In this document: in pieces, positions 2,600 through 23,804 of the stretch | Layout of the letters: each line of letters opens with the position of its first letter | How positions within the stretch are numbered: position 1 is the stretch's first letter | Source: a virus | Reading direction: 5' to 3' (one strand) | IMG/VR virus record: IMGVR_UViG_2651869533_000044 | Coordinates: 1 to 40,870 of that record | DNA: 40,870 bases | Program-made: the position numbers and the translations under genes | The notes under the pieces: generated by a model | The model's input: the letters and a program-made list of their open reading frames with translations, nothing else | Databases searched by the model: none | What the model was told of the DNA's origin: nothing

Positions 2600-2848
2600 T
2601 CATTGCAAAGGATTGTCTTTTAGGAAAGATCCAAAATTAGCAACGTCTTCGAAACATTCAGAATCAATATGTTTGATAAGCCCACCCATTAAATAATTAC
2701 AGAACTGCCTATCTTTAGGCTCCATGATTGCGTAACAAGTCCAAAAACAAGAAAGGAATGCTATCATAGCTTCACTCTTATCTCTCTTGTATTCCTTCAC
2801 GAACTTGTCTGTAAAATGCGCAACATCGTCTATCATTTGATAGCTCAT
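2600..2848 (-). CDS. hypothetical protein (82 aa)
   Basis: ORF overlapping the terminase stop by 4 nt (translational coupling). No motif recognised. Confidence 0.55.
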   Translation of the reverse strand: MSYQMIDDVAHFTDKFVKEYKRDKSEAMIAFLSCFWTCYAIMEPKDRQFCNYLMGGLIKHIDSECFEDVANFGSFLKDNPLQ

Positions 2849-4365
2849 TCAAACCTCGGATGATACTTATTGTACATTCTTTCTGCTTCTGCATCAGATA
2901 TCCCACTACTAGCACTATCTATGTGGTCTTTTATCGCTATAGCTGCATATCTAAACGCATCGGCTCCATGGCTGTATTTATTGTGGACAGGTCTGTTTTT
3001 ATACATGTCATGAACCGGATCGTATTCTTTTTTGTAGTTCTCTAGGCACTTAATTAACTTGTCGCATTTCTCGGCATCGATCCATACTCTGGGGAATATC
3101 TCGCGAGCAACGTTGATTCCCTCATCTAGACTGATATTTAATGTCGCAAGCTTTATGAGCGGAACTCCGAGGCCAGCGGCCACGCTTTTGATTGATTCAC
3201 GAGTGGCCATGCTCCTGTTTTCGATATCATGAGGTCCAAAATATCTGTCATATAAATAAGGTTTTGATTTGATAAGTGAGAGATAATGGGCAAAGCCTTC
3301 TCCCGAATTTTCGTAATAGTCGATAACATGAATTTCCTGTCCTATATTCTGCCAAAAAACTATAGCGCATGAATCAAGCATACCTGGGTCAAAAGCTACG
3401 CATACACGAGCTTCTCTATCCCAAGGAACTCGAACATTAGTGCCAATTCTACCTTCAAAACGAGCTTCCCCAATCCACTTAGCATAGAAAGAACCATCTA
3501 CAGAGCTTTCAAACGCTTCCTCTGGCGTAGATGGGTATTCCCGTCTTTGGTCGTCTTTTTGTATCAATAATTTCCTATAATACCAAGACTTTTTTTGTAC
3601 AGAAAGGTTTATGCCCTTCATTCGCAGTGATTCAAAATATTCTTCTATCTCTTTTGGGATTATGGTAGGCTCTGTCTCTTCGTAATCTTTGCAATCATAC
3701 CAAGGAAAAAAATGAAACCTATAATCGAGAGGACTCAATTTTTTACCCATTGTCTTATCAGCTTGGGCTACCTGGCAGATATCGTAAAAAGCTCCTTCCT
3801 TTCCCTCCGCAGTACTTTCGATGAAGATGTATTGTTTATTTGCGACCGTGTTCAAGCTTCCAGTGATGATTTCACGAGCTTTATCAGGATAGTGAGAGCA
3901 GATCTTTCCAAATTCACTTATATGGAGATATTGCAACGTACTACCCCGCATCGAAGTACCTACGCGCAAGCTAGAATTATTATTGAAAACCATTTCCCTG
4001 GCGCTATCCGTGGTAGCCGTGCGAAGGGACTTGATGCAATCTGGCATCTTGTCATACGCGAACTTGATGCGCTTGAAAATATGTTCAGCGTCCTCTCTAG
4101 TGTGTGCTATTATTCCAGCTGCAACATTGGATCTAAAAAGGCAGATATCCAAAAAGTAGAGACAGACAAAAGTAGAGATTCCGAGCTGTCGGGCTTTAAG
4201 TATCACATTAGAGAACCATATATTTTCATATAATTGCTTTTGAGCATAATTTAACTTAAACAGAGTTGCCGACCCATCTTTATCCACGATAGTATATAGA
4301 TTTTGTAATCTCCACAAAGGGTCCGGAAGATATTTGTGTAAGTCGGCAAGCTGTTCAGGAGTCAT
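2845..4365 (-). CDS. terL: terminase large subunit
   Basis: 506 aa. N-terminal ATPase blocks (ILKARQLGISTF, LQYLHISEF) and C-terminal nuclease blocks (VCVAFDPGMLDSCAIVF, SHGADAFRY). The size is typical. Confidence 0.85.
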   Translation of the reverse strand: MTPEQLADLHKYLPDPLWRLQNLYTIVDKDGSATLFKLNYAQKQLYENIWFSNVILKARQLGISTFVCLYFLDICLFRSNVAAGIIAHTREDAEHIFKRIKFAYDKMPDCIKSLRTATTDSAREMVFNNNSSLRVGTSMRGSTLQYLHISEFGKICSHYPDKAREIITGSLNTVANKQYIFIESTAEGKEGAFYDICQVAQADKTMGKKLSPLDYRFHFFPWYDCKDYEETEPTIIPKEIEEYFESLRMKGINLSVQKKSWYYRKLLIQKDDQRREYPSTPEEAFESSVDGSFYAKWIGEARFEGRIGTNVRVPWDREARVCVAFDPGMLDSCAIVFWQNIGQEIHVIDYYENSGEGFAHYLSLIKSKPYLYDRYFGPHDIENRSMATRESIKSVAAGLGVPLIKLATLNISLDEGINVAREIFPRVWIDAEKCDKLIKCLENYKKEYDPVHDMYKNRPVHNKYSHGADAFRYAAIAIKDHIDSASSGISDAEAERMYNKYHPRFE

Positions 4366-4835: not shown

Positions 4836-5492
4836 TCAAATTTCCACTCTTATAGCACCGTTTACTGGATCATAATTCTCATCCATGCGGGATGCATTAA
4901 CAAATATTGTCTGCAAACCTAAAATATCCGTTTGTTTTCCGAAAGATTCGTGAATATGACCAAATACATGTAACTTTGGATTTATCTTGATAACCGTATC
5001 TTTAAGCGATTTGCTTCCTACTGAAGAATTAGCACTTCGTCTATTGCAAACCTTGTCTAGTATTCCAAAAGGAGGGGAGTGAGTTACTAAAATATCGATA
5101 TCTTTAGGAATTAAAGACCATTTTTCAGACAACTCTTCATCTGTATCAACGGTGAAAGCTTTACAATTTGAGTTCATACCCTTGAAAGTTTTAGTCCAAG
5201 GAGAGCCCCATATCTTTAGATGTTGAAATTCGGTTCCTGAGTCGCACAGATATTCAAAAGAACCAGAAACCTTGCCTATAGGTCCTTGGTAATTCTCTTT
5301 ATTGGCTTTGTTGTCGTGATTTCCGGCGATTACTATCTTTTTCTTATATTTTTGTTCATCAACCCACTCGAAGAAGTCAAAGCATTCAGAAAGAGTGTCT
5401 GATAAAGTCCAATCTCCAGCTACGATAAGAAGATCACCTGAAGGAAGTTTCGGATGATCTCCATGCATATCTGATATGCATGTGATTTTCAT
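4836..5492 (-). CDS. calcineurin-like metallophosphoesterase
   Basis: 218 aa with all five metallophosphatase blocks: ISDMHG, VAGDWT, GNHD, THSPP, GHIHE. Confidence 0.88.
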   Translation of the reverse strand: MKITCISDMHGDHPKLPSGDLLIVAGDWTLSDTLSECFDFFEWVDEQKYKKKIVIAGNHDNKANKENYQGPIGKVSGSFEYLCDSGTEFQHLKIWGSPWTKTFKGMNSNCKAFTVDTDEELSEKWSLIPKDIDILVTHSPPFGILDKVCNRRSANSSVGSKSLKDTVIKINPKLHVFGHIHESFGKQTDILGLQTIFVNASRMDENYDPVNGAIRVEI

Positions 5493-6460
5493 AATTCATA
5501 GTCCAGGTTGATGGATTTAAAGCTAATCATCTTGCCGTTGATGTGCTCCCAAGATCTGATAACCACACCTTCACGGATATGTCCATTGGCATAATTGCCG
5601 GTAGCGAGCGAACCAATGTCGGTTTCGTCGAAATTATCCCTTACTGTTAGAATCCGTACGGTTGGAAATCCAATCTTCTCACAAAAGTCTATGAAATCGT
5701 ACCCGTCCAGATAGCTCCTCTCTTCGATATTGTAGGCGCTGAACGCTAACCCATCTATCTCAGAAAACCCCATTGGATTCTTTTGAATCTTGGGACCACA
5801 AGTCTCCCACTGAAGGGCGTATCCTTCCGGGAGAATCTCTCTGAGATTATACTTGTTGGCAACCTTCCAATAGCCATTATCACCCTCTTCCAACTCTAGA
5901 TTTCTACTGCACACACCAAACTCGCCTTTCCACTTATAAGCCGTTGTAGAAGATCCGTCGGCCTTCTCTGTGACGTAGTATCGATGTGCCCATAAAGACG
6001 CTATATCTTCTTCACAGCGCTGCCAGTTAGGCTCGTCTGTCTTTGGTATAAATGAGGGGAAGTTTCCTTTGCATTTCCCCTCTAAAGAGGCGGGAACCGG
6101 CTTAACATATTTGATAACTCCCATAACTTCGGTGAGGTCATCTCCAATCTCATCATCTGATGCAACCCAAGGTGTGATTACGCACTCAGAAGGAGCGCCT
6201 TTGAAACGACGCATCTTAACGCGCCAATTAGAGCTTCTTAGAAATTGTACAAGAGAAGATTCGGGAACTATTGCGTCCTGAAGATAGACAAGGCAGGTGT
6301 GACCTACTTCGAAGTCTTCTTTCCGAACGACTCCGCGCCACTTACCGCCTTTTCCGCACACAACAGTAGCAGAAACAATGAAATCAGCTCCTGGAATAGC
6401 TTCCATTGAGATAATCTTACCGACGAAGACAAGATTTTTATTATTCTGTTGAGTGTCCAT
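5489..6460 (-). CDS. ATP-dependent RNA ligase, DraRnl (DRB0094)-like
   Basis: 323 aa. An N-terminal OB-like segment is followed by nucleotidyltransferase motif I TEKADGSS (KxDG), motif IV EGVVIR and motif V ISFKSIN. There is a 4-nt overlap with the phosphoesterase gene. Confidence 0.75.
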   Translation of the reverse strand: MDTQQNNKNLVFVGKIISMEAIPGADFIVSATVVCGKGGKWRGVVRKEDFEVGHTCLVYLQDAIVPESSLVQFLRSSNWRVKMRRFKGAPSECVITPWVASDDEIGDDLTEVMGVIKYVKPVPASLEGKCKGNFPSFIPKTDEPNWQRCEEDIASLWAHRYYVTEKADGSSTTAYKWKGEFGVCSRNLELEEGDNGYWKVANKYNLREILPEGYALQWETCGPKIQKNPMGFSEIDGLAFSAYNIEERSYLDGYDFIDFCEKIGFPTVRILTVRDNFDETDIGSLATGNYANGHIREGVVIRSWEHINGKMISFKSINLDYEL

Positions 6461-6601: not shown

Positions 6602-6883
6602 TTACACCGACTCAGGATTGGGCAGAACATCGTCTACAGGAACTACAGACCTAACGATCAATTTGATCTCTTCAGTCTTCAGGAGGTACCTACACTTTCC
6701 GATAGAGAACCCGAAGAACTCTCCTTGGTAAGACTGGTCCACGGCAGATGCAATATCTTCGTCTTCGACTTCAAGTTGTGTTTCTAAAGTCAAATTTCTA
6801 TCGCACTTATATACGAATATCCATCGGAATTTTGTTGTTTTATCTTCTTCTTTTGGATTTTGTTTCTTGATTGCTTTTGCCAT
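6602..6883 (-). CDS. hypothetical protein (93 aa from MAKAIKKQ; the ORF track extends to 6916)
   Basis: GGAG lies 7 nt upstream of the ATG at 6883. The longer start at 6916 would overlap the predicted promoter. Confidence 0.5.
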   Translation of the reverse strand: MAKAIKKQNPKEEDKTTKFRWIFVYKCDRNLTLETQLEVEDEDIASAVDQSYQGEFFGFSIGKCRYLLKTEEIKLIVRSVVPVDDVLPNPESV

Positions 6884-6903
6884 CACAGACTCCTTTTTTT
6901 TGG

Positions 6904-6932
6904 ATCTTAATGGCACTTCGGATTTACGACAA
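6904..6932 (-). promoter_or_regulatory. sigma70-like promoter (TTGTCG-17-TAAGAT) for the leftward operon
   Basis: On the minus strand, TTGTCG is at 6932-6927 and TAAGAT at 6909-6904 with a 17-nt spacer, immediately downstream of the iteron cluster. Confidence 0.35.
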
Positions 6933-6968
6933 CTAATTACTTTAACACGTCTAAAATATTGTTTTGAC

Positions 6969-7078
6969 GTAAGGTTTTCTGTTAGGGTAATTTGGCAAAT
7001 TTTACTTGTCAGCGTAAGGTTTTCTGTTAGGGTATGTAAGGTTTTCTGTTAGGGTATGTAAGGTTTTCTGTTAGGGTC
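6969..7078 (+). repeat. four direct copies of the 21-bp iteron-like repeat GTAAGGTTTTCTGTTAGGGTA
   Basis: Copies start at 6969, 7014, 7036 and 7058. The last three are in exact 22-bp phase and the first lies 45 bp upstream. Confidence 0.9.
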
Positions 7079-7498
7079 TGCCCTATGAGATTTGACTCAT
7101 TAAGTTATTAAGATATTAATAACAGGGAGCCGTTTTGTACGGCCCCCCGTTATTTAAAAAAAGTAGATACATCAGCATTAAGATTTGGTAAATATATCAA
7201 TAAAATGCCGATTTCTGCTTGCAAGGTACCTAGAATTGATTTACACAGTCCCAGACGTGATTTGATATGTTTTTTGCATTATATTCGCTTAAATCGAAAA
7301 TTAGACGCGTTCTGAATCGTTTTTTTCGTGTCTGACACCCAGAAGATCGAAAACTTTACGGATTGCTCTTCTGGTAGAATTTTAAGTATTTCATATATAT
7401 AGGTCAGCTATCTGTCCAAATAGCATCTGTCAAGTTTTTGTCTTGTGTCAAGCCCTACCCCCTCCCCTATCCTTAAACCTGCCCCTCCCTCACCCCTA

Positions 7499-7558
7499 GT
7501 CTCGATTGTTACCCCTTCGGGGCTCGCGGAAGCGACAGGTCGCCTCCGTCTCGATTGT
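7499..7558 (+). other. GC-rich tetraloop-hairpin element flanked by 11-bp direct repeats (GTCTCGATTGT)
   Basis: GTCTCGATTGT occurs at 7499-7509 and 7548-7558. Between them lie CCCC-UUCG-GGGG, UCGC-GGAA-GCGA and GCGA-CAGG-UCGC hairpins. A C-tract region precedes it (7453-7495). Confidence 0.5.
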
Positions 7559-7656
7559 ACCAAAGGGTTTTTTTAAAGTATATTTATTTTTACAACCCTT
7601 TTCATTAGAAGCCTTCCGCTTTAGCTGAGGGAATATTCACCATACATCTAAATCAC

Positions 7657-7685
7657 TTGTAGTCTTTGGTGATCGCTGATAAAAT
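7657..7685 (+). promoter_or_regulatory. sigma70-like promoter (TTGTAG-17-TAAAAT) reading into the pentamer arrays and ORF 7904
   Basis: TTGTAG at 7657-7662, an exact 17-nt spacer, TAAAAT at 7680-7685. The first array starts about 20 nt downstream of the expected start site. Confidence 0.5.
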
Positions 7686-7709
7686 ACAACATTTTATTTT
7701 CTATTTCAA

Positions 7710-7880
7710 GGCTGGGCATGGCGAGGCCAGGCGAGTCAAGGCATGGCAAGGCTAGGCTGGGCATGGCCAGGCGAGGCTTTGCGTGGCGAGGCAAGGTTTA
7801 TTGGGGGCGAAAGCTCATATTTCAAGGCTGGGCGAGGCAGGGCAGGGCATGGCTAGTCGGGGCTAGGCATGGCGAGGTTT
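7710..7880 (+). repeat. (GGCNN)n pentamer arrays 1 and 2 (18 + 11 units) joined by a 26-nt GNRA-hairpin linker
   Basis: Array 1 is 7710-7799, the linker ATTGGGGGCGAAAGCTCATATTTCAA is 7800-7825, and array 2 is 7826-7880. Both arrays hold perfect 5-nt register within the block and end in GGTTT. Confidence 0.9.
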
Positions 7881-7903
7881 AACTTAACAAACAAGGAAAA
7901 AAA

Positions 7904-8491
7904 ATGACAAAAGTAAAAGCAAATATTGAAATCGAAGGATGCAAACCATTTCTATGGCATACTTTTCCATTGGACGCTCTTTCAACCACCAAGAAAAGAG
8001 AAGGAACGACGGGAGATAACAAATCAGAATGGAAAGACACCGTATTGATGGACAATGATCGACGCCTCTACATTTACAACAGCTATCTTTTGTCATCGAT
8101 TGCCGATGGAGGAAAAGAAATTAAGCAGGGTCGCGGCAACATCTCCAAAAAGGTATCATCAACTCTTGACATCGAAGAATATAGACTTTTTCTCACAGAT
8201 CTTACCGTACCATCTGAAGAAGACTTAACAAGAAATGACAGCGATCTCGTTTATTTAGACGTTCGAGCTGTTGTCAATCCAATGACAAAAGGCAGAAATT
8301 TGCGCTATCGTATCGCTGCCCGTCCAGGTTGGAAGCTTAAATTCGTAGTAGGCTGGGATGATCGCATTCTCTCTAAAGATCAGATCAAATCTTGTATAGA
8401 AAACGCCGGAGATTTACAAGGAATTGGAGACGGCAGAGGTTTAGGATTCGGAAGATTTAAACTTCTGAAATTTGAAATGATTAAGAATTAA
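7904..8491 (+). CDS. hypothetical protein (195 aa), possibly a RAMP-type (Cas7/Csm3- or Cas6-like) RNA-binding fold
   Basis: AGGAA lies 6 nt upstream of the ATG. It is one of only two ORFs of 60 aa or more in the 2.9-kb island. The C-terminal GIGDGRGLGFG fits the RAMP glycine-rich loop GhGxxxxxGhG. The fold assignment is from memory of RAMP patterns, not from an alignment. Confidence 0.55.
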   Translation: MTKVKANIEIEGCKPFLWHTFPLDALSTTKKREGTTGDNKSEWKDTVLMDNDRRLYIYNSYLLSSIADGGKEIKQGRGNISKKVSSTLDIEEYRLFLTDLTVPSEEDLTRNDSDLVYLDVRAVVNPMTKGRNLRYRIAARPGWKLKFVVGWDDRILSKDQIKSCIENAGDLQGIGDGRGLGFGRFKLLKFEMIKN

Positions 8492-8500
8492 TTTTTTCAA

Positions 8501-8742
8501 GGCTGGGCGAGGCTAGGCAAGGCAGGGTTTATTGGGGGCGCAAGCCCATATTTCATGGCTTGGAGTGGCAAGGCCAGGCATGGCAAGGCACGGCTAGGCA
8601 AGGCACGGCGTAGCCAGGCATGGCAAGGCAAGGCAGGGCAGGGCAAGGCAAGGTTTATTGAGGGCGTGAGCTCATTTTTCGGGGCAGGGAATGGATGGGC
8701 AAGGCGAGGCTGGGCTAGGCCAGGCTAGGCAAGGCAAGGTTT
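8501..8742 (+). repeat. (GGCNN)n pentamer arrays 3, 4 and 5 (6 + 20 + 12 units) joined by two 26-nt GNRA-hairpin linkers
   Basis: Arrays are 8501-8530, 8557-8656 and 8683-8742. Linkers are 8531-8556 (ATTGGGGGCGCAAGCCCATATTTCAT) and 8657-8682 (ATTGAGGGCGTGAGCTCATTTTTCGG). Confidence 0.9.
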
Positions 8743-9054
8743 TATTGAGGCAGGATGAGAGATGAATGAATGGATCAACGTTTGCGGAAAGCTGGCGTGG
8801 CAAGCTATGTTACCTAATATATGCATTCTTCCGTCATAACTGGCAGTAAAATATTTGTTTGAGTACTTAGGATTAGACAGTTAGATGGTATTAGAAAAAT
8901 ACTCAGCCTCTTCGGCTGCCACGGCGTTGAAGCTGAGCTGTATCAACTGATTGAAAAATCTAAAAGGTAACAATAAGGCCTGTCAAGCGACAACTCGGCA
9001 GGTCCATATACTCCTTAGGGTATATCAAAATAGAAAAAAATATAAAAAGCTATT

Positions 9055-9255
9055 TTAACAACTGATAAAATTCCCACCTAAATCCCTTTGTTCCGCAGTT
9101 GGGTTATCGGAAAAGTCGTCTAGGGTTAAATGATGGCCTTCTCTCTTGATGCGGTCAGGCTGATCACAAGAATCACAATGATCTAAAGGAACGAACCATA
9201 TCTTTTTCTGATCGGTTTTCATTCTTTGTTCCATCTCACATTTATGACATCCCAT
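9055..9255 (-). CDS. small zinc-ribbon-like protein (66 aa)
   Basis: Two Cys pairs (CHKC and CDSC). AAGGAG lies 7 nt upstream of the ATG. Confidence 0.55.
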   Translation of the reverse strand: MGCHKCEMEQRMKTDQKKIWFVPLDHCDSCDQPDRIKREGHHLTLDDFSDNPTAEQRDLGGNFISC

Positions 9256-9747
9256 AATCTTGCTCCTTGATGTCGCCGTTCAAAAAAGTCGAGAGATAGG
9301 ATTTGAACCTATCGCCAAAAGCCTTGCGCCACTCTTTCATATATATACGAAATAGAAAAAACTTAAAAAGTAAATATAGGGATTGTTAAGATTTCTTAAT
9401 AATTAAAAAAAATGGAACCAGAATCTGTGTAAAAGTACCTTAAATCACTCCAATATTATTGGGAATGTTAAGAATTAGGGAGTTATGGAAATGTTTCGAA
9501 AAATGGAAAAAAATATGGGTCGTTATAGTGATATGTATATTTAAGTACCCGTCCTCCTGCGGGGCTGCACCCCTCGACCCCCACCCCCGGTAAGTAAATC
9601 ATTTAGTACTTCGTTGATCTGAACTCTTAGGACTCAACTCAATAGTGTAGATAAATACCAATAACCAATCCTATCCATACATAATTAAAGTGTAAGGTTA
9701 GACGAACGGCTAGATCTACATAGTAATTAATTGAATCAAGATAGTTA

Positions 9748-14150: not shown

Positions 14151-14753
14151 ATGTTTGTGTACATAAATCATTACAATATATACCAAGCCTATATGGAAGT
14201 CAATGGACGAAGATATGCGAGAGTTTCTGAAGTGATAAGCAGCTTCAATGACTTTTCAAAGATCCCCAAAGAAGTTCTCGAAAACAAGGCGCTTCTCGGC
14301 ACCAGAGTTCATGAACTCATCAAAGAGGAAATTCAAGGGGAGTTCCCTATTGCCCTCGGAAAGGAATGCGGCTACATGGAGAGCTTCGTACGGTGGAAAG
14401 ATGCAACTAGAGCCGAGTTTATTGCCTCTGAGAAACGGTATTGCGACGAGGAAAGAAGACTTACCGGTTGCATCGACGCTATCGTCAAATTGCATGGAGA
14501 AGATGAAGCTATCCTGGTCGATTTCAAAACCTCTGCTCAAGAGTCTCCTATCACGTGGCCTATGCAGGCTCACTTGTACTACTATTTATTGGTACGACAT
14601 AACGTTTCCGTGGCTAATCGCTTTCTTTTTATAAAGCTAGACCGTCATGGAAATATGCCAAACGTATTCCAATACAAATTTGACACTAACCTCTTAAATA
14701 AATGTTTGCAATTAGTTGATGAATATTGGGAGAACAAAAGCCTTGGACTATGA
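14151..14753 (+). CDS. PD-(D/E)XK family nuclease (recombination exonuclease partner of RecT)
   Basis: 200 aa, with an alternative start at 14193 (MEVNGRRY). GTRVHELIKEE and CIDAIV...ILVDFKTS fit the D..(D/E)xK core. It sits upstream of the RecT-like gene. Confidence 0.55.
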   Translation: MFVYINHYNIYQAYMEVNGRRYARVSEVISSFNDFSKIPKEVLENKALLGTRVHELIKEEIQGEFPIALGKECGYMESFVRWKDATRAEFIASEKRYCDEERRLTGCIDAIVKLHGEDEAILVDFKTSAQESPITWPMQAHLYYYLLVRHNVSVANRFLFIKLDRHGNMPNVFQYKFDTNLLNKCLQLVDEYWENKSLGL

Positions 14754-23438: not shown

Positions 23439-23804
23439 GATTTTACCTTGATTGTTAACTCTGGGATTTTGTTAACGGGATTGACTACTCTGTATAAGAT
23501 GGGTAGGCTTATCGCAAATATTGATGCTAAATTCTTGGCTGTAGATGTTAAATTTGATGTTATGGACAAGAAATTTGATGCAATAGATAGGAAATTCGAT
23601 GCAATAGATAAGAGATTTGATGCAATAGATAAGAGATTCGATGCAATAGCTTCAGATATCAAAGAAATAAAGGCTGATATACGTGTTCTGGATTCTAGAA
23701 TATCGAAGCTAGAAGTTCGTGTAGAAGAAAGGACTCTGAAAGTGGTTCACGTTCAGAAACCATATGTACAACAAATAGAAGAATCATTGGCAGCTAAGGA
23801 GTAG
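23439..23804 (+). CDS. membrane-anchored coiled-coil protein with six 7-aa tandem repeats ((K/R)FDAIDK)
   Basis: The start MDFTLIV is preferred because GGAG lies 9 nt upstream; the ORF track starts at 23394. N-terminal TM helix, then 21-bp tandem DNA repeats at about 23529-23654, then a coiled coil. Confidence 0.55.
   Translation, partial: DFTLIVNSGILLTGLTTLYKMGRLIANIDAKFLAVDVKFDVMDKKFDAIDRKFDAIDKRFDAIDKRFDAIASDIKEIKADIRVLDSRISKLEVRVEERTLKVVHVQKPYVQQIEESLAAKE

Follow-up and report, generated by a model that had tools for sequence, protein, structure and literature searches.

We analyzed a 40,870-nucleotide (nt) stretch of viral DNA (IMG/VR record IMGVR_UViG_2651869533_000044, positions 1 to 40,870; here, the window), with the focus on the open reading frame (ORF) at positions 7904 to 8491 and its surroundings. 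The product of this ORF, 195 amino acids (aa) long, is a real phage RAMP and a member of the Vipr family. The locus around it (7704-8760) most probably constitutes a VIPR (Viral Interference Programmable Repeat) system of an uncultured phage of ca. 41 kb, in which five arrays of GGYNN pentamers would encode the guides used by Vipr for DNA silencing; we put the probability of this reading at about 0.88. It is carried by the homology of the protein to a Vipr of solved structure, the RAMP fold predicted for it, the conservation of most of the residues that contact GGY, the architecture of the arrays, the covarying hairpin that follows several of them, the co-occurrence of gene and arrays in related loci, and the lack of self-targets in the window. 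Taken on their own, the membership of the protein in the Vipr family and the identification of the arrays as guide RNA (vrRNA) genes are well supported.

VIPR was described in two 2026 preprints as phage-borne, RNA-guided DNA silencing that relies on a RAMP proposed to predate CRISPR (bioRxiv 10.64898/2026.04.26.720920, 10.64898/2026.04.26.720927). Vipr itself, a minimal RAMP, occurs mainly in phages and proviruses, and the published vipr genes are flanked by intergenic arrays of 9 to 16 YNNGG (equivalent to GGY-NN) pentamers, each with a structured 3' tail, giving vrRNAs of ca. 100 nt (bioRxiv 10.64898/2026.04.26.720920,.720927). Cryo-electron microscopy of the system of Escherichia phage SUSP1 placed one Vipr protomer on each GGYNN repeat along the RNA (bioRxiv 10.64898/2026.04.26.720927). 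The target is double-stranded DNA (dsDNA), read in the pattern NN-x-NN-x so that one base is skipped for every repeat, and its transcription is silenced; the natural targets are competing phages and satellites, and the loci lack self-targets (bioRxiv 10.64898/2026.04.26.720920,.720927). Expression of vrRNAs, co-purification with Vipr, and DNA binding and silencing were shown for SUSP1 and P. fulva (bioRxiv 10.64898/2026.04.26.720920,.720927).

The vipr gene and its product

The gene and its ribosome-binding site (RBS) were located as follows.

7893-7897, plus strand: Shine-Dalgarno sequence AAGGA of vipr, read from the sequence, 6 nt before the ATG and 13 nt past the end of array 2
7904-8491, plus strand: vipr gene, encoding a 195-aa minimal RAMP (RRM core, thumb hairpin at ca. 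116-139, glycine-rich loop [G-loop] at 173-184), from the ORF, homology, an AlphaFold2 model, and Foldseek

The ORF starts with ATG, and its translation agrees with the strings quoted in a preliminary description of this DNA, which had proposed a RAMP on the basis of a glycine-rich loop close to the C terminus. Both the N-terminal segment KANIEIEGCKPFLWH (residues 5 to 19) and the motif R134-x-R136-I-x-x-x-P-G-W-K-L-K-F-V-V were found in the translation, and the C terminus reads AGDLQGIGDGRGLGFGRFKLLKFEMIKN. A mid-protein segment given there as Y-x-x-S-x-(L/I)-x-S-(I/L) is also present, but the pattern was inexact, a minor slip, since the actual residues, Y58-N-S-Y-L-L-S-S-I66, correspond to Y-x-S-x-L-x-S-x-I. 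The G-loop, G173-I-G-D-G-R-G-L-G-F-G183, lies 12 to 22 residues from the end of the protein. In an alignment of 53 homologs with 37 to 84% identity (here, the clade), residues G173, R178, G181, and G183 were invariant, while G169, G175, G177, and R184 were conserved in at least 90% of the sequences. Given this conservation across 53 homologs, the glycine-rich motif is not a product of chance.

The protein had also been called an orphan, which is accurate for its position as a solitary gene but not for its representation in databases. At an E value of ≤1e-35, 110 homologs were found in metagenomes, many of them on contigs of ca. 40 kb, and an exhaustive profile search retrieved 1,651 representatives of clusters at 50% identity (E ≤ 1e-3). 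The nearest relative (P0001) shares 97% identity with the window Vipr.

A phmmer search against all PDB sequences gave one significant match, to entry 36pp, "SUSP1 Vipr protein" (E = 4e-8), in which residues 6 to 187 of the window Vipr aligned with residues 4 to 187 of the 202 in SUSP1. When the profile of the 53-sequence family was used instead, 36pp was again the only match (E = 4.1e-11). The comparison with Cas profiles that the preliminary description had suggested as a check gave little: no RAMP match appeared in the Pfam search of Vipr even at an E value of ≤10, nothing matched among the NCBIfam profiles, and the PADLOC profiles gave Csm4 alone, at E = 0.021 and 12 bits, over the G-loop region. 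Judged by sequence profiles, Vipr falls outside every curated CRISPR Cas family. Among the phage protein families, it matched PHROG 4652, annotated as "unknown function," and tblastn against GenBank phages found no match. An identity as an AHJR-like nuclease, for which Pfam gave a match at E = 0.17, was rejected, as the score was below the threshold (11.9 versus a cutoff of 26.1 bits) and the model described below is an RRM and not a PD-(D/E)xK fold.

An AlphaFold2 model of Vipr, built on the family alignment, reached a mean predicted local distance difference test (pLDDT) score of 90.6 and a predicted template modeling (TM) score of 0.84. The topology is beta1-alpha1-beta2-beta3-alpha2-[G-loop]-beta4. 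In the N-terminal half, the model has beta1 (residues 3 to 12), a helical insertion (22 to 50, with pLDDT values of 70 to 73), a strand (54 to 58), and alpha1 (59 to 72); the C-terminal half has strands that include a hairpin (116 to 139), followed by alpha2 (158 to 172), the glycine loop (173 to 184), and the last strand (185 to 192). From the model and the alignment together, the beta-hairpin at 116 to 139 carries the invariant motif NPxTKGRNxRYR. Vipr is accordingly modeled as a ferredoxin/RRM core with the G-loop at the position typical of RAMPs. A Foldseek search of the PDB with this model gave 134 matches at E ≤ 1e-3, and the best 50 were all of Cas7 type, namely, Csm3 and Csm5 (type III-A), type VII Cas7, and Cmr4, with TM scores of 0.5 to 0.6 and E values from 6e-9 to 7e-7. 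In BFVD, the best matches were uncharacterized viral proteins (TM score of 0.73), along with one "Cas system-associated RAMP superfamily protein." The structural check proposed earlier, i.e., a ferredoxin-like fold in AlphaFold and Foldseek, therefore came out in favor of a RAMP of the small Cas7/Csm3 type.

We then compared the window protein with SUSP1 Vipr at the residues that hold the repeat. In SUSP1, GGY is sequestered, with G1 bound by H17 and D177, G2 by R138 and W178, and Y3 by R179 and its neighbors, leaving NN exposed (bioRxiv 10.64898/2026.04.26.720927). The SUSP1 numbering was rebuilt from the printed alignments and checked against each residue named in the paper, and SUSP1 was then aligned to the hidden Markov model of the family. 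The equivalent positions are listed below, with their conservation among the 53 clade members.

SUSP1 H17: window H19; His in 36/53, Asn in 16/53
SUSP1 R138: window R136; 53/53
SUSP1 D177: window D176; 44/53
SUSP1 R179: window R178; 53/53
SUSP1 W178, stacking on G2: window G177; Gly in 50/53, the exception
SUSP1 K82, clamp on the non-target strand: window K71; Lys or Arg in 52/53
SUSP1 G87-K88, clamp on the non-target strand: window G76-R77; Gly in 53/53, Lys or Arg in 53/53

Four of the five GGY-contact residues of SUSP1 (H19, R136, D176, and R178 in the window numbering) were thus kept. The equivalent of SUSP1 K33 could not be placed because the alpha-bundle region aligns too poorly.

Pentamer arrays around vipr

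A scan for GGYNN pentamers on both strands of the whole window detected five arrays, all on the plus strand and all around vipr, with none elsewhere on either strand. The flanking repeat mentioned in the preliminary description is therefore real and confined to the surroundings of the gene. The arrays below were delimited by the pentamer scan, and the hairpins are supported by covariation.

7710-7799, plus strand: putative vrRNA array 1, 18 GGYNN units (16 strict), i.e., 17 guide dinucleotides and a terminal GGTTT; leader TTTCAA
7805-7816, plus strand: tail/linker hairpin 1, GGGC-GAAA-GCTC, inside the tail ATTGGGGGCGAAAGCTCATATTTCAA (7800-7825)
7826-7880, plus strand: putative vrRNA array 2, 11 units (10 guide dinucleotides and GGTTT), without a hairpin tail, running into the vipr RBS
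8501-8530, plus strand: putative vrRNA array 3, short, 6 units, starting 10 nt past the vipr stop codon; leader TTTCAA followed by GGCTG
8536-8547, plus strand: tail/linker hairpin 2, GGGC-GCAA-GCCC
8557-8656, plus strand: putative vrRNA array 4, 20 units (18 strict), i.e., 19 guide dinucleotides and GGTTT
8662-8673, plus strand: tail/linker hairpin 3, GGGC-GTGA-GCTC
8683-8742, plus strand: putative vrRNA array 5, 12 units, of which 9 (from 8698) are strict and two close to the 5' end are GGA, with a degenerate tail (TATTGAGGCAGGATGAG) and no clear hairpin

The leader is TTTCAA|GGCTG in arrays 1 to 3 and TTTCAT|GGCTT in array 4, and all five arrays end with GGTTT. The repeated part is nearly constant (GGC in 57/67 units and strict GGY in 64/67), while the NN strings differ among the five arrays. 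Single GGA units occur in arrays 4 and 5. The composition of the guide dinucleotides is strongly biased: C was found at only 7 of 134 bases, the dinucleotides GC, CC, CG, CT, and TC were never used, and A predominates. Among the relatives, the arrays of loci L044, L005, and L010 use these five dinucleotides freely, unlike those of the window.

Downstream of arrays 1, 3, and 4 comes the element ATTG-(GGGC-GNRA-GCYC)-ATWTTTC. In relatives, the tail hairpin is found with other stems (GATC/GATC, GTCC/GGGC, and GAGC/GCTC), and all 56 cells pair across the 14 distinct tails compared, which come from 5 loci. Two of the four hairpin pairs show double-sided changes, with GC/UA/CG and AU/GU/UG/GC exchanges. 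None of 500 shuffles reached the observed covariation score, and slid controls paired at 48% at most. The covariation support for the hairpin is good but not overwhelming, since the helix is short and the loci are few. A Rfam scan of 6800 to 9500 found no family, including any hammerhead between the arrays, and no CRISPR-type interspaced array was detected in the window. Scans for sigma-70 promoters and terminators gave nothing convincing on the plus strand upstream of array 1 and nothing after array 5, respectively, a result that carries little weight.

The earlier suggestion that the protein might process the flanking RNA bears directly on these hairpins. Like Vipr, Cas6 is a RAMP with a C-terminal G-loop, and conserved hairpins lie between consecutive arrays, as would suit a Cas6-like endoribonuclease whose main role is cleavage of the array RNA at these GNRA linkers and not the formation of filaments on guides. 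We consider such an enzyme very unlikely and found no support for processing in our results: the Foldseek ranking is dominated by the backbone subunits Csm3, Csm5, and Cmr4 and not by Cas6, by sequence, the protein is a homolog of Vipr, which covers repeats with one protomer on each unit, and the conserved residues are those that hold GGY and not contacts to a hairpin. Besides, Cas6 has two RRMs, against a single one in the window protein. The other role suggested earlier for the protein, coating of the flanking repeat RNA, agrees with what would be expected by analogy, as SUSP1 Vipr, its sole sequence relative with a solved structure, polymerizes with one protomer per GGYNN repeat (bioRxiv 10.64898/2026.04.26.720927).

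The pairing of gene and arrays was examined in 46 related loci, drawn from IMG/VR and further assemblies. Strict GGYNN arrays of at least 6 units were present on the strand of the gene, within ca. 1.5 kb, in 32/46 loci, and relaxed GGNNN arrays, mostly GGA-NN, lay by the gene on the same strand in 8 more (40/46 in total). The distal sequence used as a control had 4 arrays in 338 kb of strand-sequence. The relatives have GGY, the terminal GGTTT, and a hairpin tail in common with the window but unrelated NN strings, and this combination of a constant GGY and tail with unrelated NN strings is the signature expected of guide RNAs. The GGA-NN arrays that flank some relatives reach up to 44 units (L011 3565-3784, L014 3916-3990, and L034 2844-2968) and have a purine at repeat position 3, though the SUSP1 pocket was described as excluding purines.

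These data also bear on two other explanations. The preliminary description had considered an anti-CRISPR decoy, that is, a stray Cas7/Csm3 captured by the phage that would poison type III or type I complexes of the host, the repeats being unrelated to it. The Csm3-like fold of the model would suit such a role. Still, we regard it as highly improbable and found nothing in its favor beyond the fold, given that no curated Cas7, Csm3, or Cmr4 profile matched (only Csm4 in PADLOC, as above), that the specific sequence relationship is to Vipr, and that a decoy would have no need of the same-strand GGYNN arrays seen in 40/46 loci. Even less probable, in our view, is that the arrays are non-functional G-rich simple repeats, through slippage or as G-quadruplex DNA, beside a conserved phage protein of unrelated function. 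Tandem Repeats Finder did score the arrays only as imperfect 5-, 10-, 15-, and 20-nt repeats, and the AHJR-like match could be taken as a hint of another function. Against this, GG and Y are fixed while NN varies, the arrays keep their strand and their placement relative to the gene even in diverged loci, the hairpin between arrays covaries, and the AHJR score is far under the Pfam cutoff for a protein modeled as an RRM and not as PD-(D/E)xK.

At the junction between array 2 and vipr (7826-7906), the array ends with GGTTTAAC, adjoining the RBS in the order GGTTTAAC..AAGGA..ATG. The same junction recurs in diverged relatives (L001 9917-10003, L004 2914-3003, and L010 2927-3003), and this conservation suggests that array 2 forms the 5' untranslated region (UTR) of the vipr mRNA and might take part in autoregulation. 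In a rival version of this idea, the system would be VIPR-like but would act mainly on its own expression, with loading of array 2 occluding the vipr RBS and the arrays regulating RNA instead of foreign DNA. In line with it, array 2 has no tail hairpin and stops 13 nt short of the Shine-Dalgarno sequence, its junction is conserved in L001, L004, and L010, and SUSP1 Vipr is also able to pair its guide with RNA. We nevertheless find it unlikely, as the window has no site that matches a guide, and autoregulation would add to targeting between phages, not replace it. In SUSP1, moreover, the filaments formed on RNA targets are incomplete, and it is DNA that is silenced (bioRxiv 10.64898/2026.04.26.720927).

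Proposed guide function and a candidate target

By analogy with SUSP1 and P. fulva, it is plausible that the arrays of the window locus are transcribed and matured, that filaments form, that the 1-nt-skip code applies, and that DNA and not RNA is targeted and silenced, given the conserved contact residues. The plus strand would probably be transcribed as one unit, as in SUSP1, in the order vr1, hairpin, vr2, RBS, vipr, vr3, hairpin, vr4, hairpin, and vr5 (vr1 to vr5 being the putative vrRNAs of arrays 1 to 5). Vipr protomers would polymerize along each array, one per pentamer, with the G-loop, the beta-sheet His, and the thumb Arg sequestering each GGY and leaving the two variable bases exposed. 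The filament could then bind dsDNA, reading NN-x-NN-x, and silence transcription there. As the window holds no target, the most plausible targets would be genes of competing phages or mobile elements.

Several observations weigh against reading the locus as a VIPR system. The Trp178 of SUSP1 that stacks on G2 corresponds to Gly177, and to Gly in 50/53 clade members, and the details of how the repeat is recognized may therefore be different. The window protein and SUSP1 Vipr share little sequence identity, with poor alignment of the N-terminal alpha bundle (residues 22 to 50; pLDDT of 70 to 73). A hairpin tail is missing from the final array of each cluster (arrays 2 and 5), and the tail, where present, is a simple hairpin and not the pseudoknot of SUSP1. 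There is no vap gene: beside vipr, no plus-strand ORF of at least 40 aa was found except for spurious frames through the arrays. Lastly, exact-seed searches of IMG/VR, of metagenomes, and of 185,579 genomes turned up a single candidate target, with an NN match of 85%, and none for the other guides. Regarding the accessory gene, no vap-like partner was conserved across the relatives either. A vap gene next to vipr is "typical," with six vap families and seven VIPR types, and stand-alone vipr genes were also reported (bioRxiv 10.64898/2026.04.26.720920,.720927). Given that the two-gene locus is called only "typical" and that stand-alone genes exist, vap is not obligatory.

The search for targets was done at several scales. 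Within the window, with the arrays masked, the best NN match reached 65% with vr1 and 61% with vr4, the same level as under control skip rules and in agreement with the controls published for other VIPR loci. Likewise, when 74 guides of 43 related loci were compared with 340 kb of collected sequence, the skip-1 rule gave no excess over skip-0, skip-2, or skip-3. The large collections were scanned by exact pattern only, using exact cores of 9 to 12 guide dinucleotides as seeds. Nothing was found in IMG/VR with the 12-NN cores of vr1 and vr4 or with seeds from vr5, vr2, and the 5' half of vr1; nothing in metagenomes and the 185,579 genomes with the 11-NN core of vr1; and nothing in genomes with the 10-NN core of vr4. 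In metagenomes, this last core gave two matches restricted to the seed, which were rejected (55% and 68% overall).

The seed from the 3' half of vr1 retrieved two contig families from IMG/VR. The first was at chance level outside the seed (6/16; 71% overall) and was discarded. The second, composed of IMGVR_UViG_3300031227_000189 (36 kb) and 3300035698_006003, matched at 11/16 positions outside the seed and at 29/34 overall (85%), against 56 to 65% under other skip rules. The site lies on the minus strand (L053 10238-10287, the same as L051 9261-9310), within the gene of the major head protein (PHROG 264) of a phage that has no detectable similarity to the window phage. The chance of at least 11/16 matches is about 0.7-1e-3 per seed hit, or roughly 0.004 to 0.05 over the seed hits expected and examined. 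For the A/T-rich vr1 guide, ca. 1 to 20 unrestricted matches of at least 85% are expected by chance in 1e11 positions, and the strong A-richness of the window guides also raises the number of chance matches in AT-rich DNA. No second guide of the window matched the candidate phage (20.9 kb examined), nor did the guides of the relatives converge on it. The skipped base falls on codon position 1 and not on the wobble position favored in the preprint, and the site is not conserved in a capsid gene with 71% identity. In view of the chance odds, the lack of convergence, the codon position, and the lack of conservation, we take this match of vr1 to a capsid gene in an unrelated phage as a suggestive lead only.

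A broader proposal can be made from these observations, although we hold it to be doubtful. The clade without vap would be a mechanistic variant of VIPR in which G2 is held without Trp, the minimal GNRA hairpin between consecutive guides could act as a maturation or capping signal, the promoter-proximal array in the vipr 5' UTR could let Vipr loading feed back on vipr translation, and vr1 could silence the major capsid gene of an unrelated phage in the same cell, the skipped base being at codon position 1 and not at the wobble position.

Genome context and relation to known systems

The window encodes a portal protein, a major head protein, the large terminase, a replication initiator, RusA, endonuclease VII, a serine recombinase, and an RNA-repair set. 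Between 6916 and 9459, vipr is the only gene on the plus strand, and its neighbors, on the opposite strand, are ordinary phage genes. PADLOC found no Cas effector genes among the 46 ORFs of the window. The statement in the preliminary description that no other cas gene is present therefore holds for effectors, and its picture of a solitary, phage-borne RAMP fits a genome with portal, head, and terminase genes and no CRISPR array. The sole match with a cas name was the ORF at 14151-14753 (plus strand, 200 aa), a weak hit (27 bits, E of about 1e-6) to a Cas4-type PD-(D/E)xK domain, 6 kb away, which is probably a phage recombination nuclease.

Other features of the window deserve mention. One of the 46 ORFs matched the PADLOC candidate-defense model PDC-S10 at E = 7.6e-66; individual rescans of 20 of these ORFs did not recover it. 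The RNA-repair set comprises a tRNA-Gln(UUG), a metallophosphoesterase, and an RNA ligase (422-492, 4836-5492, and 5489-6460, all on the minus strand), together with a tRNA-splicing ligase of the RtcB type (PHROG 1075/32430), which suggests countermeasures against anticodon nucleases of the host. In the noncoding gap of ca. 800 bp upstream of the VIPR locus, a 22-nt direct repeat, (C/T)GTAAGGTTTTCTGTTAGGGTA, is present four times at positions 6968 to 7078. Three of the copies are arranged in exact tandem, and the repeats look like iterons or operators. Further on, positions 7440 to 7565 contain a C-rich tract (CCCTACCCCCTCCCCTATCC..CCTGCCCCTCCCTCACCCC), then a direct repeat, GTCTCGATTGT(T)AC, whose copies flank a UUCG hairpin and a GCGAC..GTCGC hairpin, and after these a T-run. 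This region had no Rfam match, and its fold was no better than that of shuffled sequences (z = 0.05). A 21-nt tandem repeat (AAATTTGATGCAATAGATAAG, 4.8 copies, 87% matches) is located at 23550-23649, in an ORF gap at ca. 23.4 to 24.0 kb.

Among known systems, the closest is the type II VIPR of SUSP1 (PDB 36pp). The two proteins are homologous over their full length (195 aa in the window versus 202 aa in SUSP1) and share the G-loop core G-[IV]-G-D-x-R and the thumb Y-R. The loci share the GGY-NN repeat unit, the same-strand array layout (one set of vrRNAs upstream of vipr, three downstream), and a conserved structured 3' element after the arrays, and both are phage-borne, without a CRISPR array or self-target. 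They differ in that the window locus lacks vap1, has Gly in place of the G2-stacking Trp178, and has a 4-bp GNRA hairpin as its tail, absent from the last array of each cluster, instead of a pseudoknot. With respect to type II as a whole, the layout with upstream and downstream arrays is similar, but vap1 is absent. The window arrays, with 5 to 19 guide dinucleotides, exceed the published range of 9 to 16 at both ends.

In the case of the Cas7 backbone subunits (Csm3 and Csm5 of type III-A, Cmr4 of type III-B, and type VII Cas7), the modeled likeness extends to the RRM core, the thumb hairpin, and the G-loop before the last strand, and by analogy, the same mode of action might be expected, with one protomer per fixed number of guide nucleotides and a thumb that flips bases out. 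Unlike Cas7, the window protein belongs to no Cas7 sequence profile and has neither partner Cas proteins nor a repeat-spacer array; the guide period is 5 nt, against 6 nt for Cas7 of class 1 CRISPR, and the guide is a pentamer repeat and not a contiguous spacer. The window locus has most of the features by which a VIPR system can be tested from sequence, and a predicted Cas7 fold without the sequence profile or the genomic context of Cas7.

A blastn search of the window locus against GenBank phages recovered only arrays of mycobacteriophages (Quico, Florinda, and Donkeykong). In Mycobacterium phage Quico (NC_028751.1), ca. 48 GGC-NN pentamers at 2407-2647, in blocks that overlap by 1 nt, lie directly upstream of QUICO_57 (coding sequence 2779-3378), a hypothetical protein of 199 aa that ends in GVGDWRP...YGRYEV, a SUSP1-type G-loop with Trp. 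This locus differs from that of the window in its much higher GC content, its staggered, overlapping arrays, and a protein that is only distantly related. Going by its sequence, the Quico locus is a separate, so far unannotated VIPR-like locus next to the immunity region of a cultured mycobacteriophage.

The VIPR class had already been described in the 2026 preprints, and the locus analyzed here leaves the current picture of it unchanged. What it provides is a compact example, one gene and five guides in ca. 1.05 kb, from a clade without vap and without the Trp that stacks on G2, which could for that reason serve as a minimal test case for the parts that are essential to VIPR. It also shows that VIPR-type systems can be recognized from raw sequence by a G-loop together with flanking pentamer repeats.

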